Below, piece after piece: positions 1,031-18,134 of a DNA stretch of 18,250 bases. The notes beneath the pieces were generated by a model. That model ran no database searches. It was not told the DNA's origin and saw only the letters and a list, made by a program, of their open reading frames with translations. A program made the position numbers and the translations under genes. The first letter of the stretch is position 1. Each line of letters opens with the position of its first letter. The stretch lies in IMG/VR virus record IMGVR_UViG_2690315922_000010. The stretch is one strand, 5' to 3'. This DNA comes from a virus. Lineage: Duplodnaviria > Heunggongvirae > Uroviricota > Caudoviricetes.

Positions 1031-2206
1031 ATGGATATAACTTGTTTAGAATGTGGCAATGTTCTTGACGACCCAACTGTAGCTTGCGATAAATGCGGTG
1101 CCACGCCTCATGTTGTAGTGCTGGGCAAACAATCGTACTTTCCTATTGGTGCTGTAACAGCAAATCTTGAAAAAAATGATTCAAGAGCATTTGATTATCG
1201 ATTAGGTGAAGTTTGGGATCTAAAAAATGAAGTCACATCTGAATTCATAACCAGAATTGAGAAAAAATTTAGCCGAAAAAACAAATTTCATAACTTCCTA
1301 GACTCAGATCACAACCCTTCATCCATTCCTACGATCCTAAAAAAATACATTAATAAAAATAATGAATTCATTGATTTATCTAGAGCTATAATAGAGAGGC
1401 TTAAACATAATGCTAATAACGAATCGAGAGTTGCCCAACTTCAGGGGGGGAGCGTTGTTTTCATCCACTATAAGTCTACCGAACCAGAGGATTTGGGGAA
1501 ACTTCTAATCGTAATGGTTGATAAACAAAGCGCCTATGACTTTGATTCGGATAAGTTGACCCCAACAAGATTAAATCCAATTAATACCGATGCCTTACGG
1601 CAGGCTGCGATGTTCGATTTAACTTTATTCGAAGCCAGTTATCCAGAAAACAAGGGTGACTCATATGTACATTTCTTGCAAGGTAAATCTAAAAGCGATT
1701 TTTTCAAAGACTCATTAGGTTGCCGACATGATTCGGACAATAAAAGAAGCATTCAGCAATTATTCAGTGCTATAGATATTTTTGCTAGTAAAAACTCACT
1801 CGGTCGTGTACTGCGTGATACTATTGACAATGAAGTTAAATCCTTACTGGAAAAAAAATCAAAAGATAAACACGGAAATAAGTCCGTTAAGATAGAGGAT
1901 ATTTCAAAAATAATTGACTCATGCCTGACTGATTCACACAAATGTAAGGGAACGTTTGTCGATTTTGTTAATCTTAATGGTTTCCAGATTGACCCTCAAT
2001 TTGAACCAACTCCTAAAGCAGCTGAAAGCGCGCTTACAATTGAAGTGGCAGATAACGACAATAATTTTAAGTTGAAAATAATGCGTGGAGCTATTGGAGA
2101 CGAAAAGTCAAATAAGCCTGTAATTCTCACTGACAACAAATGCGAAATTGTGATAAAATTGAGTCAGGCAAATTATGATGAACTCAAAAGATATAGAGAC
2201 AGCTAA
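1031..2206 (+). CDS. Zinc-ribbon protein with NdpA/YejK-like (nucleoid-associated, PF04245-like) domain, 391 aa; cassette gene 1
   Basis: ATG at 1031 with GGGGA 6 nt upstream. N-terminal CxxC-X10-CxxC (C5, C8, C19, C22). Central block GGSVVFIHYK...LLIVMVDK...YVHFLQGKSKSDFFKDSLG resembles the NdpA/YejK signature as I remember it. Strongly AT-rich codon usage compared with flanking phage genes. Function is inferred, not confirmed. Confidence 0.8.
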   Translation: MDITCLECGNVLDDPTVACDKCGATPHVVVLGKQSYFPIGAVTANLEKNDSRAFDYRLGEVWDLKNEVTSEFITRIEKKFSRKNKFHNFLDSDHNPSSIPTILKKYINKNNEFIDLSRAIIERLKHNANNESRVAQLQGGSVVFIHYKSTEPEDLGKLLIVMVDKQSAYDFDSDKLTPTRLNPINTDALRQAAMFDLTLFEASYPENKGDSYVHFLQGKSKSDFFKDSLGCRHDSDNKRSIQQLFSAIDIFASKNSLGRVLRDTIDNEVKSLLEKKSKDKHGNKSVKIEDISKIIDSCLTDSHKCKGTFVDFVNLNGFQIDPQFEPTPKAAESALTIEVADNDNNFKLKIMRGAIGDEKSNKPVILTDNKCEIVIKLSQANYDELKRYRDS

Positions 2207-2208
2207 TA

Positions 2209-3423
2209 ATGACAATTGCTGATGACTTATCAAGATTAGCGCAGATTATTAACGGAGCCTCAAGCAGAGTTGAGGGCTACTACACTGTCATAAGTCTTGA
2301 AGAAAGCATTGTTATTGTAAATAGTTCTGAAATAATTAGACTGTTACAATCTATAGGTTATAAAAAGGCAACAACCTGCATCGAAAATAATGAAATTTGG
2401 CTAGATCGCCAAGCTTCATCTTGGGATGACGCTATAATTTATGAGAATGTTGAGTCTTTTTGGTCTAGAGTAAACACCCAAAACGCTCTTCCGAAAAATT
2501 ATATCATCGGAACGCCGTTAATACTCCCTACTTCTAAGAATGAAAGCATCGAAAAAATCCATATTTTCTTTATGTGGAAAGATATCCTTTCATTAATTGC
2601 TGATCATCATAACAGTGACTGCTCTGTCTTATTTTTCACCAATGAAGACAAAAGTTATACAGTCGAACTCACGCATTTTTTACAATATAGCGAGATTAAT
2701 CGCTTATCGAACTCGTCTCTTAAATATGAAATTATAAAGGAGCTTCTCGACACAATAAAAATCAATGATTTACACAAAAGCGAGCGCAAGCTCGTTATAC
2801 GCTCAGCCATAAACGAAGTATTTAAAGCAAATGGTACGTTCAATTTCTTTGACTTGCTTAACTCTACTGAACTCGTCAGGAAAAAATATGATGAACTATA
2901 TGAGATTTACACAAAGAGGTTTTCTGTAAATAAAATTCTTAACGAACTCGATGAGAAAAATCTTGAGTTCACGAGTAAAATTAACGAATTCATATCATCT
3001 AATCAGACAAAAGCATTGACTATTCCCGGTGCATTAATAGCAGCTGGTGGCTTAGTGAAGGCTAATGAAACAACCGAAGCAATATTGATTATCGCAGGAC
3101 TTTGGATGATAAAAAAAGTCAATTACATTTCTATTGAGATATTCAATGAAACATTCGACAACTTACGTTCTCGAGTGGAGTCCGCTTTCGATAAGTATTT
3201 AAAGTTTGAAGAAAATAAAGAAATCAAAGATAATGCAGATAGTATTAAGAGTAGCATTACAGGTTTGATTGATAAAGCTAAAAAAAGGATGAGAACTGTT
3301 AAATATCTCGCATCAGCCATGTTTTATGGAGGCCTTATTTACGTTGGATATAAACAGTTCCCAGTCTTTTTTGAAAAATCGGCAGTAAATCTATTTTATT
3401 TTTTATGCCATACTATAAGCTAA
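2209..3423 (+). CDS. Membrane-anchored protein of unknown function, 404 aa; cassette gene 2
   Basis: ATG 2 nt after the stop of gene 1, suggesting translational coupling. About 265 aa soluble N-terminal domain, then a hydrophobic helical hairpin (about aa 268-303, ALTIPGALIAAGGLV...AILIIAGLWMI) and a third hydrophobic segment (about aa 366-380, YLASAMFYGGLIYVGY). AT-rich like gene 1. No recognisable catalytic motif. Confidence 0.75.
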   Translation: MTIADDLSRLAQIINGASSRVEGYYTVISLEESIVIVNSSEIIRLLQSIGYKKATTCIENNEIWLDRQASSWDDAIIYENVESFWSRVNTQNALPKNYIIGTPLILPTSKNESIEKIHIFFMWKDILSLIADHHNSDCSVLFFTNEDKSYTVELTHFLQYSEINRLSNSSLKYEIIKELLDTIKINDLHKSERKLVIRSAINEVFKANGTFNFFDLLNSTELVRKKYDELYEIYTKRFSVNKILNELDEKNLEFTSKINEFISSNQTKALTIPGALIAAGGLVKANETTEAILIIAGLWMIKKVNYISIEIFNETFDNLRSRVESAFDKYLKFEENKEIKDNADSIKSSITGLIDKAKKRMRTVKYLASAMFYGGLIYVGYKQFPVFFEKSAVNLFYFLCHTIS

Positions 3424-3759
3424 CATTGCTAAACAGCCGTCAACAAACCCCATTGCAGTTTGCAGTTCCTTCCTAATTGTGCCATCAGAGCATTTTCTCT
3501 TCTTCGCAATAGTGCGTAATGAGATACCGATAACAAAGTGGGCGATGATGAGCTCATATTCCTCTGGTTTATACCTTCTCAACCGAGCCACACAACTGTC
3601 TATCATGATGCCTTCATCATCATCGCACTGGAGACGTGACTTTTTACCGTGTGGTAGAAGCCCCTTGAAACCAGCCGCTATCGGCTGCCAGTCGACACCA
3701 CTATTTTCTGCTGCAGCCCAAGCCCCCCAACGATCTAAAACTTCGTACATATCACGCAT
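3403..3759 (-). CDS. Q: Late-gene antiterminator Q (phage 21/QuuD-like family), 118 aa
   Basis: MRDMYEVLDRWGAWAAAENSG...AAGFKGLL...RLQCDDDEG...CSDGTIRKELQ matches the small Q family of E. coli lambdoid prophages as I recall it. Lies between the replication genes and the lysis genes. ATG overlaps the stop of the upstream gene (TGATG). Confidence 0.8.
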   Translation of the reverse strand: MRDMYEVLDRWGAWAAAENSGVDWQPIAAGFKGLLPHGKKSRLQCDDDEGIMIDSCVARLRRYKPEEYELIIAHFVIGISLRTIAKKRKCSDGTIRKELQTAMGFVDGCLAMLAYSMA

Positions 3760-8893: not shown

Positions 8894-9006
8894 CTCCTTA
8901 CGGATAAATTCTTTTAAAATTCCGCACATTCGTACTTGTTGGTGCCGAACCTTCCTTTAGTTATCCTTTTGATCCCTATAAACAAAAGAACCAAAGGAGG
9001 TTCGAC

Positions 9007-9258
9007 ATGTCACAAAAAAACGATATTCCTGTTTTTCCTATTACAGCCTGGCAGGCTGGACCATTGCCCGGTTATGGTGCGCTAGCATTAAAATTCCAGT
9101 ACCTGGCTTCCCCTATGCAACCACTGGATTCAGCACAAGAAACTCAGTTCTTCGCGCTTACTCCCGAAATGGCTGAGACTTTGATCTCCGATCTGCGCCG
9201 ACATATTGAGACGCTGAAAAAATCCGGTATTCACAGCCCACAAGAAAACAGGCATTAA
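9007..9258 (+). CDS. Hypothetical protein, 83 aa
   Basis: ATG preceded by AAAGGAGG with ideal spacing. Divergent from Rha and followed by a hairpin terminator. No recognisable domain. Confidence 0.6.
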   Translation: MSQKNDIPVFPITAWQAGPLPGYGALALKFQYLASPMQPLDSAQETQFFALTPEMAETLISDLRRHIETLKKSGIHSPQENRH

Positions 9259-9289
9259 TCGAAAACACGGTTGCCACATAATTTCTTGA

Positions 9290-9322
9290 AAAGCGTCGCG
9301 CACTGGCGCTTTTCATTTCTCT
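9290..9322. terminator. Hairpin terminator between convergent genes (possibly bidirectional)
   Basis: GAAAAGCG (9290-9297) pairs with CGCTTTTC (9308-9315), followed by a T-rich tract on the plus strand. Lies between the 3' ends of the 9007-9258 gene and the cro-like gene. Confidence 0.45.
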
Positions 9323-9342
9323 ACGATCAACAAGCATGCACT

Positions 9343-9588
9343 TCACTTCACCTCCCCCGTACGCGCTAAGCTTGGATGTGGAAAAAGCTCTGGTAGGTCT
9401 GGACGAAATTCATACGCTTGGATCTTTCCGTCGACAGCTGCAACCAATAACGGCACAAATTCTGGTGAAATCTTGTTCTTGCAGTTCAACCAATCGCAGA
9501 CTGTTGACTGGGCCTTTCCGCATCGCTTGGCTAAGGCTTGCTGACTTCCAAGAATCTCAATAGCTTTCTCTATGGCTTTATGTTTCAT
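9343..9588 (-). CDS. Cro/YdaS-like helix-turn-helix regulator, about 81 aa
   Basis: MKHKAIEKAIEILGSQQALAKRCGKAQSTVCDWLN... has a YdaS/Cro-type HTH pattern. Divergent from the CI-like repressor. ATG at 9588 preceded by AGGAGA. Confidence 0.75.
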   Translation of the reverse strand: MKHKAIEKAIEILGSQQALAKRCGKAQSTVCDWLNCKNKISPEFVPLLVAAVDGKIQAYEFRPDLPELFPHPSLARTGEVK

Positions 9589-9610
9589 AATCGCATCTCC
9601 TATTGAACGC

Positions 9611-9639
9611 ATAATAACAACAGGAAAAGCGATATTCAA
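9611..9639 (-). promoter_or_regulatory. pR-like sigma70 promoter for the cro-like/early-right operon
   Basis: Read on the minus strand: TTGAAT (plus 9634-9639), 17-nt spacer, TATTAT (plus 9611-9616). Predicted start about 20 nt upstream of the cro-like ribosome-binding site. Confidence 0.5.
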
Positions 9640-9655
9640 CGTTAAACCTAGAATA

Positions 9656-9675
9656 TTTATCGGAAAGCCGATAAA
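9656..9675. promoter_or_regulatory. Candidate operator palindrome in the cI/cro intergenic region
   Basis: TTTATCGG-AAAG-CCGATAAA, perfect 8-bp arms. Adjacent to a pRM-like -10 (TAGAAT, 9649-9654). Related half-site motifs (CGATAAAC) recur near the downstream pL-like promoter. Confidence 0.4.
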
Positions 9676-9707
9676 CTAGCCAAGATAGAGAGGGGAGGAA
9701 AATCGCA

Positions 9708-10400
9708 ATGACATTTTCAGAACGACTTGATTTAGCTATGCGCAACGCAAAATTTACGCAAGGTAGGCTGGCCAAAGAAGTGGGTATGGCTCAGTCCAGT
9801 GTTAATCAACTACTTAACAAAGCCAACGGTTCCAGAAAAACAGTCGAAATAGCAAAAGTTTTGGGCGTTAACCCGGAATGGCTCGCATCGGGTGTTGGTC
9901 CAATGGAAATCGTGACCTCTGCAGACTCACACCAAATACGTAACATTTCTGAAGATTGGGTTACTGATTCGTATGTCGTGGATGTTTTAGACATCAGATA
10001 TAGTTGCGGACCTGGTAGTTATAACTCTGATTTTCCTGACATTGTCAGATCTATAGCGATAGAACCAGGATACGCATCAAGAGTTTTTGGCGGCAGACCA
10101 GCATCAGCAATCAAAGCAATAAACGCCCACGGCGACAGTATGAAAGGCACAATAGACCCTGAAGACTTGGTATTTGTAGATGTATCAGTTCGCACATTTA
10201 ATGGTGATGGTATATACGCCTTTACATACTCTGGAACATCGCACATCAAAAGACTTCAAAAAATCAAAGATACTCTAACGGTGATATCTGACAACCCAGC
10301 TTACAAGGATTGGGCTATCGAACCGGAAGACTTCGAACAACTTCACATTGACGGAAAAGTAATTGTCAGTTGGCCTATGACACTACACCGTTTTGCATAA
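9708..10400 (+). CDS. cI: CI-like prophage repressor (XRE HTH N-domain + S24 LexA-like peptidase C-domain), 230 aa
   Basis: N-terminal HTH (LAKEVGMAQSSVNQLLN). C-terminal autoproteolysis domain with the GDSM motif (Ser nucleophile) and a downstream Lys. AGGGGAGGA ribosome-binding site. Divergent from cro-like. Confidence 0.9.
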   Translation: MTFSERLDLAMRNAKFTQGRLAKEVGMAQSSVNQLLNKANGSRKTVEIAKVLGVNPEWLASGVGPMEIVTSADSHQIRNISEDWVTDSYVVDVLDIRYSCGPGSYNSDFPDIVRSIAIEPGYASRVFGGRPASAIKAINAHGDSMKGTIDPEDLVFVDVSVRTFNGDGIYAFTYSGTSHIKRLQKIKDTLTVISDNPAYKDWAIEPEDFEQLHIDGKVIVSWPMTLHRFA

Positions 10401-10418
10401 GCAAAAATCATTTAACCC

Positions 10419-10444
10419 GCCCACTCTTAAGTGGGCTTTTTTTT
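10419..10444 (+). terminator. Intrinsic terminator after cI
   Basis: GCCCACT (10419-10425), loop CTTAA, GTGGGC (10431-10436), then TTTTTTTT (10437-10444). Confidence 0.6.
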
Positions 10445-10467
10445 GGAAAAAAAAATCGATAAACCGA

Positions 10468-10496
10468 TTGACAGGCGAAATCGGTAAACCTATTAT
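10468..10496 (+). promoter_or_regulatory. pL-like sigma70 promoter for the early-left operon
   Basis: TTGACA (10468-10473), 17-nt spacer, TATTAT (10491-10496). Flanked by direct repeats ATCGATAAACC (10455-10465) and ATCGGTAAACC (10480-10490), which resemble the operator half-sites. Confidence 0.55.
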
Positions 10497-10545
10497 CTTG
10501 ACATAGGTATCGAACTCACCAAAGCAATTATAGAGGATGAGAAAA

Positions 10546-11043
10546 ATGTCATCGTATATGGGATTACCAACAAATCAGCACGATGCTCTTGAGAATATTC
10601 AGCTCTTAGTAGGGGCTGGTGCACTACTGTATAGCAGCAATAACCCTGAGTTAATTGAACTTGCCAGCTCCATCCTGGCTGTAACTCAAAAATATAGCCT
10701 CACCGCGTCACGTTTATGCAAACAAAATTTAGCTATTAATTCCCAGAATCGGATTCGCACCCAACGCGAAGCCTGCGGCTTAACAACCGCCGAACTCGCC
10801 AGGCTGCTCGAACTCGATGAAGAAATCATCATTCAGTGGGAGAGTGGAGAGTATGAACCAACCATCAGTATGCTTATCCCACTGGCTAATGTTCTTGGCT
10901 GCGATCCGATGTGGCTGTTAACTGGCGAGGTTACTCCTCCGGAGCAACCAAAAAGTGAGGAGCAGCAACACCATGACGCATCTCAACAAGTTTGCTCCTT
11001 ATCTCGCGAAGCTCTTCTACGGAAGAACCAATACCAATGGTGA
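10546..11043 (+). CDS. XRE-family HTH protein with about 70-aa N-terminal extension, about 165 aa
   Basis: ATG at 10546 preceded by AGAGGA; the track start is at 10537. HTH segment TQREACGLTTAELARLLELDEEIIIQWESGEYEPTISMLIPLANVLGCDPMWLL. First gene downstream of the pL-like promoter. The C-terminal tail may be shorter than the ORF. Confidence 0.6.
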   Translation: MSSYMGLPTNQHDALENIQLLVGAGALLYSSNNPELIELASSILAVTQKYSLTASRLCKQNLAINSQNRIRTQREACGLTTAELARLLELDEEIIIQWESGEYEPTISMLIPLANVLGCDPMWLLTGEVTPPEQPKSEEQQHHDASQQVCSLSREALLRKNQYQW

Positions 11044-11171
11044 CATAATCGCCGCTTCGCCCCTCAAGGTACATGCGAACATTTTTATCAATCATTGCGG
11101 AAACAGTCTCAATATGAAAACACTTCTGAGACTCGCTATATAGCAGAACATATAAGTCAGCTGAGGAAGCC

Positions 11172-11537
11172 ATGAAAAAGTTCGAAAACATAACTGTTCT
11201 CCATGTTGATGACTTTGATTATACAAACCCGAAACTTCTCCCGAAGGTTGTAAAGGCAATAGATGTTGCCGATATAGTGATTAGAGGAAAGAGAATTGTC
11301 AAAAACAGGCTCGCATGCACTTCAGGAGCAATGACAGAAACAACCTCACAACAAGATGATTATGAAGGCATTTGTCTGGAGCCTGATTCATTTGCGGTAA
11401 ATGTTTATCATTTATTGCATGCAACACAGGTATTACATATGTCAAGTAATCACGAAACAAAAACACTTGGCAGCGAAATTCTGAATTTTGCATGTGAATA
11501 TGCAAAAGCTGCTGCCGAAAAAGAATTAGCGCAATAA
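11172..11537 (+). CDS. Hypothetical protein, 121 aa
   Basis: ATG preceded by GAGGAA. AT-rich. No recognisable domain. Confidence 0.6.
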   Translation: MKKFENITVLHVDDFDYTNPKLLPKVVKAIDVADIVIRGKRIVKNRLACTSGAMTETTSQQDDYEGICLEPDSFAVNVYHLLHATQVLHMSSNHETKTLGSEILNFACEYAKAAAEKELAQ

Positions 11538-11615
11538 CAATAAATATTCCCTGAATGTTTATTACGGTTTTATCGCCGGAGATTGTTGCAACCTTTATTC
11601 GCAGGAGATTATGTT

Positions 11616-11729
11616 ATGACTTTCCTGAAACATAAGGCATCGTATAAAACTGCCTGCCTCATTGCACAACATGGAGATTCTTATCTTCATATAGCCAACC
11701 TGTATTTGCGCAAAGCATATGGGAGATAA
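11616..11729 (+). CDS. Possible small protein, 37 aa
   Basis: ATG preceded by AGGAGA at ideal spacing. Stop lies within the ribosome-binding site of the next gene. Not in the ORF track because it is below the length cut-off. Confidence 0.3.
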   Translation: MTFLKHKASYKTACLIAQHGDSYLHIANLYLRKAYGR

Positions 11730-11733
11730 GTCA

Positions 11734-11922
11734 ATGGAAGAAAAACAACAAAACATAACACATAAAAAAGTAAGAGTGTTGCTAACCATTGAAAATGGTG
11801 AAGTAATTTACTCAAAACATCTGTTGGATAGTGAATTCGTTGGCTGCATGGATACATTTCTGTGGATGGCAAAAAGAGCTGGCTACACGATTATTCCACC
11901 AGCAAAGGAGCAAACATTATGA
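11734..11922 (+). CDS. Hypothetical protein, about 62 aa
   Basis: ATG at 11734 preceded by GGGAGA; the track start is at 11719. Stop overlaps the next gene's start (ATGA). Confidence 0.5.
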   Translation: MEEKQQNITHKKVRVLLTIENGEVIYSKHLLDSEFVGCMDTFLWMAKRAGYTIIPPAKEQTL

Positions 11923-12500
11923 ATCATTCAGAGTTCCGACCAGAAGTTACTCCACATGGCATAAAAATTGGCAATACAACCATTGATTATGTTGAAGCTG
12001 TGCGGCGTCTTAATGATGGTGAATACGATTATCCAAATTCACGCGGTTTAAGAATCCTTCAGTGCCTTGCCGAAGCTGATGATGCCGGATTGCTGGGGAA
12101 ATTTTCCATCGATATGAAGGTTGCACAATGGCGCTGGCTGTATGTAACGATATTTATAAACGAAGAGGAATATAAGAACGGCACCATTGATATCTCGAAC
12201 GAAAACGGAACTACAGGTCGCGCAGTTATTTATAAAGGGAAATATGGTTGTATGGGTATCTACCCGGGACCAATTCGCATTGCCCTGCAAAACCATGTCG
12301 AATGGGGATTTATTGAAAAATATGGTGAAGATGAAGGTATGGGGCGAGTTCTGTTTCTCTATCAAAAAATGCTCATCGCAGATCCTGATAATGGTTTCAT
12401 TGTTTCTGCTATGGGACGCGAAGGGCTTGAACTCCTTCTGGATGAAATGATTAACGACCTGAATACTCATGGTATGCCAGAAGCGCCAGTGACACATTAA
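11919..12500 (+). CDS. Hypothetical protein, about 193 aa
   Basis: ATG at 11919 preceded by AAGGAG and coupled to the upstream gene. The track's longer N-terminus is rejected. No recognisable domain. Confidence 0.65.
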   Translation: MNHSEFRPEVTPHGIKIGNTTIDYVEAVRRLNDGEYDYPNSRGLRILQCLAEADDAGLLGKFSIDMKVAQWRWLYVTIFINEEEYKNGTIDISNENGTTGRAVIYKGKYGCMGIYPGPIRIALQNHVEWGFIEKYGEDEGMGRVLFLYQKMLIADPDNGFIVSAMGREGLELLLDEMINDLNTHGMPEAPVTH

Positions 12501-12546
12501 ATATTAAGAAGAAAATAATTCTTCCAGTTTTTTACTAACCGTTTAT

Positions 12547-12654
12547 ATGAAAAGCAACCGTGAATTAAACAGAGTAAAACTGATTTTAATCCTTGCCACA
12601 GTGGTGACACTAACTGAAATTATTATTCTCTTTATTGCGCTGTCAGTCGGTTAA
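12547..12654 (+). CDS. Possible small hydrophobic peptide, 35 aa (single transmembrane helix)
   Basis: MKSNRELNRVKLILILATVVTLTEIIILFIALSVG. No clear Shine-Dalgarno. Below the track cut-off. Confidence 0.3.
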   Translation: MKSNRELNRVKLILILATVVTLTEIIILFIALSVG

Positions 12655-12677
12655 AAATATCGGGATACCACAGACCA

Positions 12678-12866
12678 ATGAGACTGTATTTCACAATAGT
12701 AATTTTACTGGCAATTATCGCATGCATTTACGGATTACTCGTTCCGTTCCTTATATCCATGAAGGATACGATAGCAGTTATTTCTGGCTTTGCACTGGCG
12801 TTTCTGACCCCGCCCTGCATTTATGCCATTTACAAGGGTCTTTCTTTCACTAAGGATAAAAGATGA
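12678..12866 (+). CDS. Small membrane protein, 62 aa (two predicted transmembrane helices)
   Basis: Two hydrophobic helices. Stop overlaps the start of the SPFH gene (ATGA), suggesting co-translation with it. Confidence 0.5.
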   Translation: MRLYFTIVILLAIIACIYGLLVPFLISMKDTIAVISGFALAFLTPPCIYAIYKGLSFTKDKR

Positions 12867-13690
12867 AAAAAATTATTTTTGCTTTAGCCATTGTTCTGCC
12901 GACTATTGGCCTCGTCGGTTGCGATCGCGTTGAACCAGGTAATGTTGGCATCAAGGTAAATAAACTGGGCGACGACAAAGGCGTCGGTGAGGTGGTCGGT
13001 GTTGGTCGCTACTGGACAGGCTGGAACACTGAAGTTTATATCTTCCCGACCTTTAAGCAGATGAAGACCTACGATGATCCATTCAGTTTCCAGATGAGCG
13101 ATGGAACAACCATTGGTTACCACATCGGAGTAGCCTACAAAGTTGATCCATCCAAAGTTACCACGGTGTTTCAAACCTACCGCAAAGGTGTGGATGACAT
13201 TACCGACACCGACCTGCGCCAGAAGATAGCAGATGCACTAAATCGGCTGGCCAGCAAAATGACCACCGACAAATTTATCGACGGCGGCAAGTCTGAGCTG
13301 CTGGATGCAGCTCTAAAAGATATTCAGGCAGAAATGACGCCCATCGGTATTCAGGTAATGAGCCTGTCTTATGTAGGTAAACCGGAGTACCCGCCAACCG
13401 TTATCGACAGCATTAACGCCAAAGTCACGGCAAACCAGAAAACCCTGCAACGCGAGCAGGAAGTAAAACAGCGCGAAGCGGAAGCCAACATGTTGCGTGC
13501 GGAGGCTGCCGGACAGGCAGATGCAATTCGCACAAAAGCTCAGGCCGAAGCCGATGCTATTCGTTTACGCGGTGAAGCTCTGCGCCAGAACCCCGGTGTT
13601 ATGGAGCTGGAAGCCATCAATAAATGGAACGGCACACTGCCGCAATACATGACCAGCGGTGCCAATACACCATTTATCCAGGTTAAATAA
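12863..13690 (+). CDS. SPFH/Band-7 (stomatin/HflK/C-like) lipoprotein, 275 aa
   Basis: Signal peptide with lipobox LVGC. Band-7 core followed by an Ala/Glu/Gln-rich coiled coil (QREQEVKQREAEANMLRAEAAGQADAIRTKAQAEADAIRLRGEA). AAGGA ribosome-binding site. Confidence 0.85.
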   Translation: MKKIIFALAIVLPTIGLVGCDRVEPGNVGIKVNKLGDDKGVGEVVGVGRYWTGWNTEVYIFPTFKQMKTYDDPFSFQMSDGTTIGYHIGVAYKVDPSKVTTVFQTYRKGVDDITDTDLRQKIADALNRLASKMTTDKFIDGGKSELLDAALKDIQAEMTPIGIQVMSLSYVGKPEYPPTVIDSINAKVTANQKTLQREQEVKQREAEANMLRAEAAGQADAIRTKAQAEADAIRLRGEALRQNPGVMELEAINKWNGTLPQYMTSGANTPFIQVK

Positions 13691-13730
13691 CTTATATGCC
13701 CGGCAGGCCGCCGGGCTAAGGGAAAAGCAG

Positions 13731-14090
13731 ATGAACACCCATAATGCCCAACCGCAAATAATGAACTATGACCCGAATCTGACGTCATGCGGACGCATGG
13801 CAAAACAAACCGTTCGATTAACTTTCGGGTTATGGGAATACCGCGAAACATTCGAAGTCACTGTCGGTGGCAACCTGACCGGACTCGATGTTATCAGTTG
13901 CGCTATTGAAAGCCTGTACGCAACGCTGCCTTATGAAGAAGTCGAGGATGAGCGCGATATCATCGCCACCATTAATATCGGCGGCGTGAAATGCAAGGAT
14001 GAAAACTTGATCGGAGAACTCTGGCTTGCCGGGATGCTTATCTCTGCAGAAATTATCAGTATTGAACCCGCTACAAACATACCGCTCTGA
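13731..14090 (+). CDS. Hypothetical protein, about 119 aa
   Basis: ATG at 13731 preceded by AAGGGA; the track start at 13659 is rejected because it overlaps the SPFH gene. Confidence 0.6.
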   Translation: MNTHNAQPQIMNYDPNLTSCGRMAKQTVRLTFGLWEYRETFEVTVGGNLTGLDVISCAIESLYATLPYEEVEDERDIIATINIGGVKCKDENLIGELWLAGMLISAEIISIEPATNIPL

Positions 14091-14121
14091 AGTTCTCACA
14101 ACTCAGGGAACAGGAGAAAAA

Positions 14122-14364
14122 ATGTTCGCTTTGATTAATCAAGGGCAACTGTATACCGACAGTGCCGGTTACCCGGTAAAAATTATTCGCTGCATAAATA
14201 ACATCGTGTTGTACAGAAGAATGGATGGGCGAACACAGTCGGTAAAAATAAACGATTTTAATGAACTGTTTGAACGGATCGCTCACCAGGAATACCGACA
14301 AATTCTGGCAGAAACAGAGCAGGAAGCTCATCTGAAAAAATTACGAGCCATGAAAAGGAAGTAA
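14122..14364 (+). CDS. Hypothetical small protein, about 80 aa
   Basis: ATG at 14122 preceded by AGGAGA. Typical small lambdoid early-left gene. Confidence 0.6.
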   Translation: MFALINQGQLYTDSAGYPVKIIRCINNIVLYRRMDGRTQSVKINDFNELFERIAHQEYRQILAETEQEAHLKKLRAMKRK

Positions 14365-14367
14365 AGA

Positions 14368-14514
14368 ATGAATAAAGCATTTGAACGATGGGTCCACCAG
14401 CGTTACGGCAATCGCTATGACCTGACACGAGATGTCGACGGTTTCTACTGTCGTGAAATTGTGAAACGAATGTTTGAAGTGTGGTGCCACTGCCGCGGAC
14501 TGAGTGTTGTGTGA
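14368..14514 (+). CDS. Possible small protein, 48 aa
   Basis: ATG preceded by AAAGGAAG, 3 nt after the upstream stop. Cys/His-containing. Below the track cut-off. Confidence 0.4.
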   Translation: MNKAFERWVHQRYGNRYDLTRDVDGFYCREIVKRMFEVWCHCRGLSVV

Positions 14515-14521
14515 GGGAAAT

Positions 14522-14758
14522 ATGGGGAATGTGATTCAACTGGCTCCCAATGAATGGGTGTGTGAAAGCGTTCTTATCGCGATTACCGGACTCAAACCAG
14601 GCACAATTCTTCGGGCCCGGAAAGAATGCTGGATGGTTGGAAAAGAGTATATTCACGTATCACCAGACGGTAATCCAAAGCCTTCCAGCGAGTGTATGTA
14701 TAACAGAAAAGCAATAGATGCTTGGGTCGCTTCAATGAAAAACAAACAACCTGGGTGA
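14522..14758 (+). CDS. Excisionase-like protein, about 78 aa
   Basis: Immediately upstream of int. ATG at 14522 preceded by GAGGGA. Small basic protein with a W/R-rich DNA-binding-like region. Assignment is by position and size. Confidence 0.6.
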   Translation: MGNVIQLAPNEWVCESVLIAITGLKPGTILRARKECWMVGKEYIHVSPDGNPKPSSECMYNRKAIDAWVASMKNKQPG

Positions 14759-14813
14759 TTTAATGCCATGAAGTATGTAATCTCGTATCGCTCTTGGGCG
14801 TCTGGAGGTATCA

Positions 14814-16127
14814 ATGGATAAAGTCAAATATCCAACAGGCGTCGAAAACCACGGCGGCACATTACGCATCTGGTTTAATTTTAAAGGTAAACGTGTCAGG
14901 GAAAATCTTGGTGTCCCTGACACTGCCAAGAACAGGAAGATCGCCGGGGAACTACGGACATCGGTATGTTTTGCCATCCGCACAGGAAGCTTTGATTATG
15001 CTGCACAGTTCCCTGACTCCCCTAACCTTCAGGCTTTTGGGGTAAGTAAAAAAGAAATTACGGTGAAAGAACTTGAAGAAAAATGGCTGGATCTGAAACG
15101 AATGGAAATCTCTGCAAATGCATTCAATCGCTATGAATCCGTTGCAAGAACGATGGTTCCGAAAATTGGAGGCAGCAGACTGGTGTCATCGGTAACTAAA
15201 GAGGAATTGCTGTATATCAGGAAAGATTTGCTGACCGGGTATCAGAATCCAACGAAAAACAAAGCAGCAGCAAAAGGACGGAGCGTCGTTACTGTAAATT
15301 ATTACATGACGACAATCGCTGGAATGTTTCAGTTTGCTGCAGATCACGGTTACTTAGAAGCAAATCCCTTCCAGGGAATTAAGCCTCTTAAAAGAGCCAG
15401 GGCAGAGCCAGATCCGCTAACTCGTGACGAATTTATTCGCCTGATAGATGCTTGCCGACATCAGCAGACGAAAAACCTGTGGTCATTGGCTGTGTACACA
15501 GGAATGCGTCACGGTGAACTGGTCTCCCTGGCCTGGGAAGATATCGATCTGAAAGCAGGAACTATTACTATCAGGCGCAATTATACGAAACTCGGTGAGT
15601 TCACTCTACCTAAAACTGAAGCAAGTACAAACAGGGTTGTGCATCTTATCCAGCCCGCTATCAGTGTCCTGAAAAATCAGGCTGAAATGACAAGACTGGG
15701 TAAGCAGCACCACATCAAGGTTCAACTACGTGAATATGGGCGTTCAGTGAATCATGAATGTACTTTCGTATTTAACCCCCAGGTGGTTAGAAAAAGCAAA
15801 CAGGTCGGTTTTATCTACAAGGTAGATTCTATTGGCGACTCATGGGAAACAGCCATTAAGCGTGCGGGCATCAGGCACCGGAAAGCATACCAGTCACGAC
15901 ACACTTATGCGTGCTGGTCGTTATCTGCCGGAGCAAATCCAAGCTTCATTGCCAGCCAGATGGGCCATGCAAGTGCCCAGATGGTGTTCAATGTATACGG
16001 AGCATGGATGACTGACAGTAATGCAGAACAGATCGCAATGCTGAATCAGAAGCTGGCAGATTATGTCCCAATGATGCCCCATAGTCACCAAAATGGCACA
16101 AAAGGCTTATTAAAATCAGTAAGTTAA
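14814..16127 (+). CDS. int: Tyrosine integrase (lambda Int-like, IntR/IntE-type N-terminal arm-binding domain), 437 aa
   Basis: GGAGG ribosome-binding site. N-terminus PTGVENHGGTLRIWFNFKGKRVRE...GSFDYAAQFPDSP is typical of E. coli lambdoid integrases. C-terminal catalytic region has conserved Arg, His-x-x-Arg (SRHTYA) and Tyr. Last gene before the host junction. Confidence 0.9.
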   Translation: MDKVKYPTGVENHGGTLRIWFNFKGKRVRENLGVPDTAKNRKIAGELRTSVCFAIRTGSFDYAAQFPDSPNLQAFGVSKKEITVKELEEKWLDLKRMEISANAFNRYESVARTMVPKIGGSRLVSSVTKEELLYIRKDLLTGYQNPTKNKAAAKGRSVVTVNYYMTTIAGMFQFAADHGYLEANPFQGIKPLKRARAEPDPLTRDEFIRLIDACRHQQTKNLWSLAVYTGMRHGELVSLAWEDIDLKAGTITIRRNYTKLGEFTLPKTEASTNRVVHLIQPAISVLKNQAEMTRLGKQHHIKVQLREYGRSVNHECTFVFNPQVVRKSKQVGFIYKVDSIGDSWETAIKRAGIRHRKAYQSRHTYACWSLSAGANPSFIASQMGHASAQMVFNVYGAWMTDSNAEQIAMLNQKLADYVPMMPHSHQNGTKGLLKSVS

Positions 16128-16136
16128 TCCTTAATA

Positions 16137-16555
16137 CCCGTCATGTTAACTGCGTAGAGGGCAACACTACTCTGTATGCACTGCCGAAAGCGGAAGTTGT
16201 GCTGCGCTGGCGTGAGCAAACCAGCGACGATTTCCGTTTTTGTTTTAAGTTCCCGGCAACTATTTCGCATCAGGCTGCATTACGTCATTGCGACGATTTA
16301 GTGACAGAGTTTTTCACCCGTATGTCGCCGCTGGCACCACGCATTGGGCAATTCTGGCTGCAATTACCCGCTACCTTCGGTCCACGGGATCTGCCTGCGC
16401 TTTGGCATTTTCTCGATACTCTACCTGGCGAGTTTACCTACGGTGTGGAAGTTCGCCATCCGCTATTTTTTGCCAAAGGGGAAGAAGAACAAACGCTTAA
16501 TCGCGGCTTGCATCAACGTGGCGTTAATAGGGTAATACTAATCAGACACGTTTAA
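16137..16555 (+). pseudogene. yecE: Internal fragment of host DUF72 gene (yecE-like), disrupted at both ends
   Basis: The open frame reads ...NCVEGNTTLYALPKAEVVLRWREQTSDDFRFCFKFPATISHQ...NRGLHQRGVNRVIL with no ATG start (the track uses a GTG at 16199). My recollection of E. coli YecE matches from about residue 30 to about 165. Upstream it runs into the int stop region and downstream it diverges into a stop. Confidence 0.6.
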
Positions 16556-16610: not shown

Positions 16611-18134
16611 ATGAAACGTGCAATCAGTTACATCCGATTCAGTTCTGAGAAGCAATCCCGAGGTGATTCACTACGCCGACAATCGAAGTTGGTCACTGAC
16701 TGGCTTAAAGCTCGTCCTGAGTATCATCTAGATGAATCTCTTACCTTCCGTGATTTGGGGAAAAGTGCTTTTAGCGGTAAGCACTTGAAAGGTGGCTTAG
16801 GCGACTTCTTAACCGCTATTGAGAAAGGGCTTGTAAGAGCTGGTGATACGCTCTTGATAGAGTCTCTTGACCGTCTGTCACGGCAAGATGTAGACCGAGC
16901 AAGTGAACTACTCAGAAACATCCTTCGCTCTGGTGTCGATGTGGTCACATTATCCGATAATGAACACTACACAAAGGAATCTCTTAAAGACCCGTTAGCC
17001 TTGATTAAGTCAATCCTGATTATGCAACGAGCGCATGAGGAAAGTTTGAGGAAGTCTGAGCGTATACAGGCTGCATGGGATGCAAAGAAAGAAGCCGCTA
17101 AAGCTGGTATCAAGATTTCTAAGCGTTGCCCTGCATGGCTTAAGCTTAATAATGACCGTAAAAGTTTCTCTGTAATCCCTGAGAAGGTAGCGACGGTAAA
17201 GCGATGCTTCCAGCTACGGTTAGAGGGTAAGTCTATCTTGGAAATTGTCAGAACTCTTAATAGTGAGGGACATCAGACGCTTAACCAGTACAAAGCGGGT
17301 AAATTTAGTCAGACTTCTGTGCAAGACCTTTTGAAGAATCGCTCTGTAATTGGTTATTTCACCCCCAAAGGCTGTGAAGAAATTTCAAACTATTACCCCT
17401 CTATCATCCCTGAGACTGATTTCTACAAAGTCCAGCAACTATCATATCCTCGTTACGGTAGAAAACCTGCTTCAGATAAACCATTGAGTGTGAATCTTTT
17501 CAAGGGTGTTATCCGTTGTTCTGAATGTGGTCATGCTCTGATTATCACAGGCTTTAGCGATACAAGGAACGGGATATATCGCTGCCCTCTTCGTAATGAA
17601 AACCGTTGCAGTGCTAAGGGTCTGTCACGTAAGCAAACTGATGGAACATTACTTGCTTTGCTCTCTCGTCTTGACCGATTTGAGAATGGTACAACGAATG
17701 CCATTGATACACTGAAGCTACACCGTGAACACATTTCAAACAATATTGAGAAGCTGGTACAACTCTCACTTGAAGTCGAAGACCTGACCGCTATTACCAG
17801 CAAGTTAAAACAGTTAAAGGGGGAGTTATCACAGGTTGATGCTGATATTGAGAAGGAGGCACAACGCCTTAAATCTATTGACGTGGGTTGTTTGTCTGAT
17901 TGTGACTTGAGTACAAAGGCGGGAAGGATTGAAGCACAACTGATTATTCGTAGTGCTGTTAAAGAAGTTGTTTTAAACACTGCTAAACGTCGCTGTAGAG
18001 TAACTTTTCACAATGGCAAGGTGATTGACCTGTCGATAACAGAAAACCCCGCTCAGGACATTACAGAGGCTGAAAAGTCGCTTACTGAAATTGCTGAGAA
18101 GGGTCTGTTAGATGTTGACGCCTTCCAACTGTAG
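16611..18134 (+). CDS. Large serine recombinase (serine integrase), 507 aa
   Basis: N-terminal resolvase-type catalytic domain (AISYIRFSSEKQSRGDSLRRQ with Ser nucleophile, LIESLDRLSR). Recombinase domain, Cys-rich zinc-ribbon (CSECGH...YRCPLRNENRC) and C-terminal coiled coil. Confidence 0.9.
   Translation: MKRAISYIRFSSEKQSRGDSLRRQSKLVTDWLKARPEYHLDESLTFRDLGKSAFSGKHLKGGLGDFLTAIEKGLVRAGDTLLIESLDRLSRQDVDRASELLRNILRSGVDVVTLSDNEHYTKESLKDPLALIKSILIMQRAHEESLRKSERIQAAWDAKKEAAKAGIKISKRCPAWLKLNNDRKSFSVIPEKVATVKRCFQLRLEGKSILEIVRTLNSEGHQTLNQYKAGKFSQTSVQDLLKNRSVIGYFTPKGCEEISNYYPSIIPETDFYKVQQLSYPRYGRKPASDKPLSVNLFKGVIRCSECGHALIITGFSDTRNGIYRCPLRNENRCSAKGLSRKQTDGTLLALLSRLDRFENGTTNAIDTLKLHREHISNNIEKLVQLSLEVEDLTAITSKLKQLKGELSQVDADIEKEAQRLKSIDVGCLSDCDLSTKAGRIEAQLIIRSAVKEVVLNTAKRRCRVTFHNGKVIDLSITENPAQDITEAEKSLTEIAEKGLLDVDAFQL

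Follow-up and report, generated by a model that had tools for sequence, protein, structure and literature searches.

Positions 10546 to 12500 of the virus record IMGVR_UViG_2690315922_000010, whose 18,250 nucleotides are here called the window, are probably the opening 2 kb of the early-left (pL) unit, under repressor control, of a lambdoid prophage of the phiP27 type. The prophage would belong to the class of phages that lack a recombination (Rec) module and rely on host RecBCD and Chi sites, and it has no N, cII or cIII either. The operon is an ordinary and widespread one of the phiP27 type, and the absence of Rec genes from it is a known and explained trait. What is new lies in its detail: an antisense gene, a helical-hairpin module shared by two of the proteins, a conserved micro-protein, and a protein (L06) whose structural model has no structural match. 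As to function, our best guess is that the stretch encodes a domain-sharing regulator and partner pair followed by early accessory proteins.

Comparison with known phages and genomes tied the stretch to the Shiga toxin (Stx) 2e phage phiP27. The genes L10 to L01 of phiP27 were 94% identical in nucleotide sequence to those of the present prophage, with an identical gene order. From L08 to int, nucleotide identity to phiP27 (NC_003356) and to the Stx2a phage LC567840 was 85–94%, and the L08, orf37, L07 and L06 proteins were 98%, 97%, 98% and 87% identical, respectively, to those of phiP27. Both synteny and sequence identity with L10 to L06 thus place the stretch in the phiP27-type block. The two prophages differ in the immunity region and in the N-terminal domain of the first regulator (type B in phiP27, type A here), in L09, which is intact here but truncated in phiP27, and in the stx2e slot of phiP27, which is occupied in the present prophage by a DS1 anti-phage gene pair. 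The block was present in 390 of 5426 complete E. coli genomes (about 7%), and also in Stx1a-, Stx2a- (LC567840, for example) and Stx2d-converting phages. A syntenic core consisting of the helix-turn-helix (HTH) gene, L08, orf37, L07 and usually L06 was kept across seven immunity types, and the order HTH, L08, orf37, L07 was kept partly across genera. A literature search on the phiP27 locus tags and accessions found nothing relevant.

An earlier note, made from the letters alone, had described the stretch as a run of uncharacterised, AT-rich and translationally coupled open reading frames (ORFs), and much of this description held. The HTH gene and the ORFs of 121, 37, 62 and 193 aa were all present at the sizes it gave, and a GGAG-type Shine-Dalgarno (SD) sequence could be read 5–8 nt upstream of all five. 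The GC fraction was 0.376–0.40 over positions 11000–12250, compared to 0.50–0.55 in the replication genes. That the genes are real was supported by an excess of substitutions at third codon positions and by the absence of internal stops in the HTH core, orf37, L07 and L06; that they are uncharacterised was also confirmed. Two points required correction. Among the several stop/start overlaps that had been claimed, we found one within 10546–12500, between the 62-aa and 193-aa genes (ATGA, 11919–11922), whereas the others were not found and the 37-aa and 62-aa genes lie 4 nt apart. Furthermore, the operon is not wholly co-directional, because the 128 nt that separate the HTH gene from the 121-aa gene are occupied by a minus-strand gene of 86 aa that had been missed. 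The stretch therefore contains six genes, not five.

The pL-like promoter postulated upstream of these genes was borne out by a near-consensus sequence, TTGACA-17-TATTAT at 10468–10496 on the plus strand (11 of 12 consensus matches), which follows the intrinsic terminator that ends the cI transcript (10419–10436, plus strand; a 7-bp stem with five GC pairs, then T8). Operator-like inverted arms of 21 nt (10449–10469 and 10479–10499) flank the promoter, and their ACCGATT-N9-AATCGGT cores occur once in the window. The half-sites at pL resemble a palindrome, TTTATCGG-N4-CCGATAAA, located at 9657–9676 between cro and cI, and TTTAYCG half-sites are common to the pL repeats and the cro–cI intergenic region. 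Judged by their sequences, the terminator, promoter and repeats form a pL/OL-type arrangement. No above-chance internal promoter was detected among the plus-strand genes behind pL, and no above-chance plus-strand terminator from pL to int. Considering that the plus-strand genes lie behind a repressor-type promoter and possess no internal promoters, they are expected to be silent in the lysogen and to be transcribed from pL upon derepression, early after induction or infection. An Rfam scan of 9000–15000 gave no match except a sub-threshold Trp leader at the cI terminator.

In lambda, the position immediately after pL/OL and upstream of xis–int is that of N/nutL, cIII and Red/Gam. By contrast, none of these has a sequence relative in the present block, in agreement with the earlier note, which had reported the absence of exo/bet/gam-, N- and cIII-like genes: from pL to xis, Pfam, PHROGs and NCBIfam returned zero matches to such families. 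More specifically, none of the ORFs between 10546 and 14758 matched Exo/Bet/Gam, RecE/RecT or Erf/Abc in these three databases, no cIII family was matched in the pL operon in Pfam or PHROGs, and N had no family match either, the first pL gene encoding the HTH protein. The pL leader of about 43 nt showed no boxA or boxB by inspection, and no plus-strand terminator requires antitermination; since none was found up to int, N-type antitermination would be unneeded. In relatives with longer early-left regions, the additional genes were Ea22-like, DUF4752 or DUF551 genes or an IS110-family transposase gene, never Rec genes.

The absence of a Rec module is accompanied by an abundance of Chi sites. 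The Chi sequence (GCTGGTGG) occurs 10 times in the window (positions 692, 3043, 4477, 6588, 7241, 7341, 7832, 8824, 11896 and 14394) against 0.41 expected from base composition, an enrichment of about 25-fold that was reached in 0 of 200 shuffles, although the count covers only about 16 kb of prophage. Seven of the 10 sites are on the minus strand of the window, which corresponds to the lambda 'top' strand, the one on which Chi is active for RecBCD that enters from the right end. A Rec module has been reported to be absent from 22% of lambdoid phages, which are Chi-rich and use host RecBCD (Zheng, Casjens and colleagues 2025, PMC12315714), the same class as the Rec-/Inh- phages of Bobay et al. 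2013, as cited in PMC12315714. The present prophage has the following features of this class: a lambdoid order (Q, DnaB, DnaC-like, O-like, cro / cI, pL ... xis, int) without Rec genes, abundant and strand-biased Chi sites, and an early-left operon with no gene for a single-strand annealing protein (SSAP), nuclease, single-stranded DNA-binding protein or anti-RecBCD function. The early-left genes of LLS/ST64B (yfbR, yfdQ and yfdP types) differ from those found here. A phage of this kind would rely on host RecBCD acting at its many Chi sites, and since this strategy has already been published, the lack of Rec genes is an explained property of the class.

The first gene behind pL (10546–11043, plus strand) encodes the homologue of phiP27 L10, an XRE regulator of 165 aa composed of a hairpin N-domain, an HTH core and a 38-aa tail. 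As the earlier note had predicted, this is an XRE-family HTH protein with an N-terminal extension: PF01381 (HTH_3) matched residues 73–127 of a 168-aa form (3.4e-11; 43.4 bits against a gathering cut-off of 23), leaving an extension of about 70 aa. The regulator also matched phrog_4739 and phrog_4836, and the nearest solved structure was the N-terminal domain of P22 C2 (E 3.9e-6). The HTH core is nearly invariant among relatives, with 9/7/47 substitutions at first, second and third codon positions, respectively, and no internal stops. By contrast, the N-domain, a two-helix hairpin, exists in at least seven very divergent types, each of which was always found with a single CI type. The 38-aa tail is the reverse reading of the 3′ end of L09 and is dispensable, since in relatives without L09 the regulator ends nine residues after ...WLLTG, 9 aa thus replacing the tail, and in one genome (locus L001) the tail is truncated. 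In the L09-less relatives, the regulator stop codon overlaps the start of L08 or of a 66-aa hairpin gene (ATGA). A regulator–L08 'fusion' at locus L007 was an in-frame deletion variant and was uninformative.

L08 (11172–11537, plus strand; 121 aa; phrog_5451, 4.5e-82) consists of an N-domain of about 55 aa and a C-terminal hairpin. The family phrog_4587 (66 residues) matched both residues 3–58 of the regulator (3.5e-7) and residues 57–121 of L08 (1.6e-28). A direct BLASTP comparison of the regulator N-domain and L08 gave an E value of 0.006, type-D regulator N-domains were 43% identical to L08, and an hhalign profile–profile alignment between the full sets of regulator N-domains and L08 C-domains reached a probability of 95.6% (E 1.2e-8, 49 columns). 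In the AlphaFold2 model of L08, residues 74–89 and 94–119 form helices with a predicted local distance difference test score (pLDDT) of about 70–78. On this sequence evidence, the regulator N-domain and the L08 C-domain are homologous and define a previously undescribed helical-hairpin domain. In a Pfam scan at E ≤ 1, the regulator matched HTH families alone, L08 had no match, and SinI was not among the families found. The domain was found in several contexts: at the N-terminus of single- and double-HTH regulators, at the C-terminus of L08, alone in 66–72-aa proteins of E. coli and Raoultella, and in tandem in a 138-aa Raoultella protein (pairwise BLASTP E values of 2e-12 and 1e-10 for the Raoultella hairpins). 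Narrow hairpin hidden Markov models did not match the small proteins of Raoultella, Phytobacter and Budvicia, though pairwise BLASTP did. In relatives, L08 is either coupled to the regulator by an ATGA overlap or cut down to a protein of 66 aa that consists of the hairpin only. In 34 variants, the reading frame of the N-terminal half of L08 was open but had no third-position bias (28/23/31); this half is either fast-evolving or doubly constrained.

An XRE regulator adjacent to a small protein with a homologous helical domain recalls SinR/SinI of Bacillus subtilis, in which an XRE repressor is controlled by a small antagonist that shares its helical oligomerisation domain. The likeness lies in the XRE regulator with a two-helix domain and in the adjacent, often coupled small protein that shares this non-DNA-binding domain. 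By contrast, the hairpin is N-terminal in the present regulator whereas the corresponding domain of SinR is C-terminal, neither protein belongs by sequence to the SinI/SinR multimerisation family in Pfam, and the alleles of the small protein do not co-vary with those of the regulator. By analogy with SinR/SinI, the hairpin could be a protein–protein interaction or oligomerisation module, through which the regulator and the hairpin protein might act as partners and form a heteromer. The small hairpin protein would then join or titrate the hairpin of the regulator and thereby tune its action on a conserved early promoter target.

The gene that had been missed between the regulator and L08 is an L09 homologue (10931–11191, minus strand; 86 aa; phrog_6104, 9.6e-50). 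Its 3′ end shares 113 nt with that of the HTH gene (tail to tail) and its 5′ end shares 20 nt with that of the 121-aa gene (head to head), a double overlap that is also kept in the Salmonella prophage locus L175. A GGAG sequence lies 7 nt before the ATG at 11191, the substitutions by codon position were 11/5/25, and no stops were found in 22 variants. Full-length homologues in E. albertii, Salmonella and Citrobacter were 59–97% identical, with an invariant core and a variable C-terminus. L09 is nevertheless an optional cassette, being present or absent among otherwise identical loci. Lambdoid early operons are known to carry antisense elements, such as sieB of lambda and Rac, oop RNA and sar of P22. 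L09 resembles these in lying on the opposite strand inside the pL unit, where an L09 transcript would be able to pair with the early message: if made from its own promoter, such a transcript would cover, in antisense, the ribosome-binding and start site of the 121-aa gene in the pL message. It differs from sieB in encoding a soluble 86-aa protein without SieB similarity, in overlapping both neighbours and in having a promoter that is a candidate only. Thus, orientation, SD sequence and coding signature agree with a sieB-like moron (a gene expressed independently in the prophage), whereas the promoter is represented by a lone −10 box and SieB homology is absent. Within the stretch, L09 is the only gene with a moron-like layout.

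Downstream of L08, orf37 (11616–11729, plus strand) encodes a 37-aa micro-protein and is preceded by the SD sequence AGGAG at a distance of 8 nt. It had 13/6/24 substitutions and no stops in 23 variants, and the pattern MTFI..A.YK.A...A..G...IA.LYLRKAYGR was found in prophages of E. coli, Raoultella, Phytobacter and Salmonella and in phage CharmingMan. The gene is annotated in the Stx2a phage LC567840 and was left uncalled by the Prokaryotic Genome Annotation Pipeline (PGAP) in the closest E. coli genome. It matched no PHROG or Pfam family, and assignments to Kil, cIII or N were rejected on these grounds. About 40 nt upstream of orf37, the message contains a hairpin, CGGU-UUUAUC-GCCG (11565–11578, plus strand), followed by GGAGAUU (GGGGAUU in most relatives). 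All of its cells are paired, and compensatory changes occurred in three of the four pairs among relatives from E. coli, Raoultella and Salmonella; the hairpin is missing where orf37 abuts the upstream gene. The intergenic RNA at 11530–11640 (plus strand) folded better than its shuffles (z −3.25), with the SD sequence and AUG of orf37 paired with codons 2–4. Our own reading of the alignment suggests a similar pairing of SD and anti-SD sequences, in another register, in divergent relatives.

L07 (11734–11922, plus strand; 62 aa; phrog_340, 3.5e-23) had 16/11/39 substitutions and a weak match to the C-terminus of the anti-repressor family phrog_4792, and distant homologues were found upstream of L06 in Raoultella and Budvicia. 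L06 itself (11919–12500, plus strand; 193 aa) had 95/60/220 substitutions and yielded a confident model (pLDDT 88.2; predicted template modelling score 0.84). The profile and structure searches that the earlier note had proposed were run, and they returned no Rec, N or cIII family, assigned the regulator to PF01381 and, with the confident L06 model, found no structural relative. An exhaustive profile search with L06 recovered 116 clusters of proteins of about 190–210 aa, with conserved WRW, NG, YP, Arg, Glu and GRE motifs and a C-terminal His; no fused Pfam domain was found in the longer relatives. The label '2-polyprenylphenol hydroxylase' borne by the L06 homologues of Klebsiella phages had no Pfam or NCBIfam support and was treated as a legacy mis-annotation. 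For the genome scans a narrower alignment was used, as the broad one contained no block that was conserved enough. Phages of Klebsiella, Raoultella, Phytobacter and Budvicia carry relatives of L06 in their early-left operons, in many cases with an anti-repressor-like gene behind them. Relatives are also present in elements of Pantoea, Erwinia, Tatumella and Symbiopectobacterium (loci L087, L089, L091, L093 and L094). In four of these five loci, they are followed by a gene of about 117 aa and then by a Toprim/DUF927 primase-helicase gene, whose domains were checked in L087 only; in L093 the primase-helicase gene directly follows the L06 relative. Since L06 is absent from some otherwise identical blocks, it is not essential. 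The products of orf37, L07 and L06 may be early accessory proteins, made only after derepression and acting on host or phage partners.

Several observations weigh against a repressor-controlled early unit headed by a domain-sharing pair, in addition to the short span of the Chi count. The putative operators are assigned from the repeats only. No conserved operator was found for the HTH core, invariant as it is: 9600–12700 yielded only the inverted repeat at pL, and an AT-rich inverted repeat at 11540–11564 was considered for this role and rejected, as it is not conserved in divergent relatives. The whole L08 model was poor (pLDDT 56.8), too poor for a structure search. The two hairpin alleles of L08 did not co-vary with the seven regulator N-domain types, and assorted freely against the CI type as well, which speaks mildly against a specific regulator–L08 heterodimer unless the interface is the conserved part. 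The candidate −10 box of L09, TGTATAAT (11225–11218, minus strand), has no −35 box and is degraded in a Salmonella relative. Finally, the linkage between CI and N-domain types described below may reflect nothing more than missing homology for recombination between types.

The earlier note had suggested that the block is prophage-expressed cargo, that is, a set of morons made in the lysogen for superinfection exclusion, anti-defence or host modulation. We consider this possible, at odds well below those of the early-unit reading. The GC fraction of 0.38–0.40 is lower than elsewhere in the prophage, two of the genes (L06 and L09) are optional, the N-domain of L08 lacks third-position bias as proteins engaged in arms races often do, L09 lies in antisense as sieB does in lambda, genes for a membrane protein and an SPFH lipoprotein follow downstream as a pair, and the relatives of L06 beside primase-helicase genes in the early operons of unrelated elements behave as mobile accessory genes. 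Moreover, an anti-defence function is compatible with early expression and would not need expression in the lysogen. However, the genes lie behind a repressor-type promoter with no above-chance internal promoters, and their order recurs in different immunity types and, in part, in other genera, which is a better fit to core early functions than to variable cargo. No structural relative was found, and PADLOC 2.0 matched only the HTH domain of the regulator, a generic match, with nothing for L09, L08, orf37 (in a 48-aa reading), L07, L06, the downstream 62-aa membrane protein or the SPFH protein. We saw no evidence that the block is defence cargo expressed in the lysogen. For orf37, L07 and L06, a part in anti-defence or host takeover is plausible, albeit without a PADLOC match.

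A further explanation, to which we give a low probability, assigns the hairpin to the immunity decision. Here the hairpin would be a fast-diversifying module that travels with the immunity region and forms a new decision circuit in lambdoid phages lacking N, cII and cIII, Stx phages included: the hairpin of the pL-first protein would bind its cognate CI, Cro or hairpin paralogue and lock the choice between lytic and lysogenic growth, replacing the N/cII/cIII circuitry, while hairpin-only and L08 proteins and the antisense L09 transcript would tune the switch. Consistent with such a role, each N-domain type occurred with one CI type only and vice versa, the seven hairpin types being paired with seven CI types without exception over about 80 loci. 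The association survives in Raoultella, where locus L084 (4541–5372) encodes separate 71-aa and tandem 138-aa hairpin proteins directly after CI; the 71-aa hairpin is of the phiP27 type, and the adjoining CI is 63% identical to phiP27 CI. In addition, phiP27 is known to be without N, cII and cIII (Smith et al. 2012, PMC3430580). On the other hand, the hairpin gene is located about 150 bp from cI, so that linkage without function explains the association, and L08 carries the same domain without being tied to the CI type.

It is very unlikely that at least one of the proteins, for example L06, provides an unrecognised recombination or anti-RecBCD function. The proteins are encoded where the Rec module would lie, L06 has a fold with no known match, and the authors of PMC12315714 concede that unrecognisable Rec proteins are not formally excludable. 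Nonetheless, L06 is missing from some otherwise identical blocks, none of the proteins shows similarity to an SSAP, exonuclease or Gam fold, and Chi enrichment is the signature of phages that use RecBCD and carry no inhibitor (PMC12315714). Least probable of all is a toxin–antitoxin or abortive-infection system with the HTH protein as antitoxin and a downstream small protein as toxin. In its favour are weak, sub-threshold HTH matches to MqsA/HipB-type antitoxin, CapH and RmrA models. However, all of these are confined to the generic HTH domain and fall far short of the curated cut-offs (24.9 against 61.8 bits for the MqsA type, 24.8 against 71.65 for the HipB type), the downstream proteins match no toxin family, and the HTH gene is simply the first behind pL in a standard lambdoid layout.

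If the stretch is the beginning of an early-left unit, its products matter beyond this prophage. About 7% of complete E. coli genomes and inducible phages of the Stx1a, Stx2a, Stx2d and Stx2e types carry the block, so that its genes would be made at every induction. As N, cII and cIII are missing, early transcription must be timed, and the choice between lysis and lysogeny made, by other means, and the modular regulator and its hairpin partners are obvious candidates for this control. Screens for anti-defence or host-takeover functions have concrete targets in L06, with its confident model and no structural match, and in the micro-protein, with its conservation in several genera.

The transcription unit continues on the plus strand over 12547–13690, a region with matches to phrog_1130, phrog_200 and PF01145 (1.1e-30). 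It begins with a conserved hydrophobic ORF of 35 aa (12547–12654, plus strand; substitutions 12/3/10, no stops in 22 variants). Two minus-strand promoter-like sites, at 12646–12619 and 12610–12583, overlap this ORF, a layout that recalls type I toxin–antitoxin loci; Rfam gave no match. A 62-aa membrane protein (12678–12866, plus strand) and an SPFH/Band-7 lipoprotein (12863–13690, plus strand; L05 of phiP27, often mislabelled 'serine protease') follow, their genes overlapping by ATGA at 12863–12866. Such pairs of membrane and SPFH genes resemble stomatin/NfeD-type pairs. The pair also has weak similarity to HflK/HflC, the modulators of FtsH, in a phage without cIII.

The remainder of the window is lambdoid prophage in the orientation opposite to the lambda map. 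The minus strand carries a holin gene (413–739), a Q-like antiterminator gene (3403–3759), separated from the holin gene by an AT-rich insert, and a cro-like gene (9343–9639); between the last two lie DnaB, DnaC-like and O-like replication genes, followed by Ash- and Rha-like regulators. A LexA-type CI is encoded at 9708–10400 on the plus strand, and the plus-strand run that starts after cI ends with xis (14504–14758) and int (14814–16127). Positions 1031–3423 (plus strand) hold two AT-rich genes of 391 and 404 aa (GC 0.33–0.36), which hit the NCBIfam equivalogs DS1_1, a nucleoid-associated anti-phage protein, with 452 bits and DS1_2 with 375 bits. This DS1 pair sits between the Q-like antiterminator and the holin, in what is the stx slot of Stx phages, and is without a model in PADLOC 2.0. 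A BssS-family ORF at 9007–9258 (plus strand; PF13991, 1.3e-15; phrog_10846), with its own terminator at 9287–9315, is located on the opposite strand within the pR operon, between the Rha-like gene and cro, in a moron-like layout. Directly after int, positions 16199–16555 (plus strand) hold a yecE-like remnant (DUF72-like, by eye), which is consistent with yecE as a published insertion site of Stx phages (PMC8065619). A 507-aa protein encoded at 16611–18134 (plus strand) resembles a large serine recombinase, which suggests that a second integrative element adjoins the prophage.

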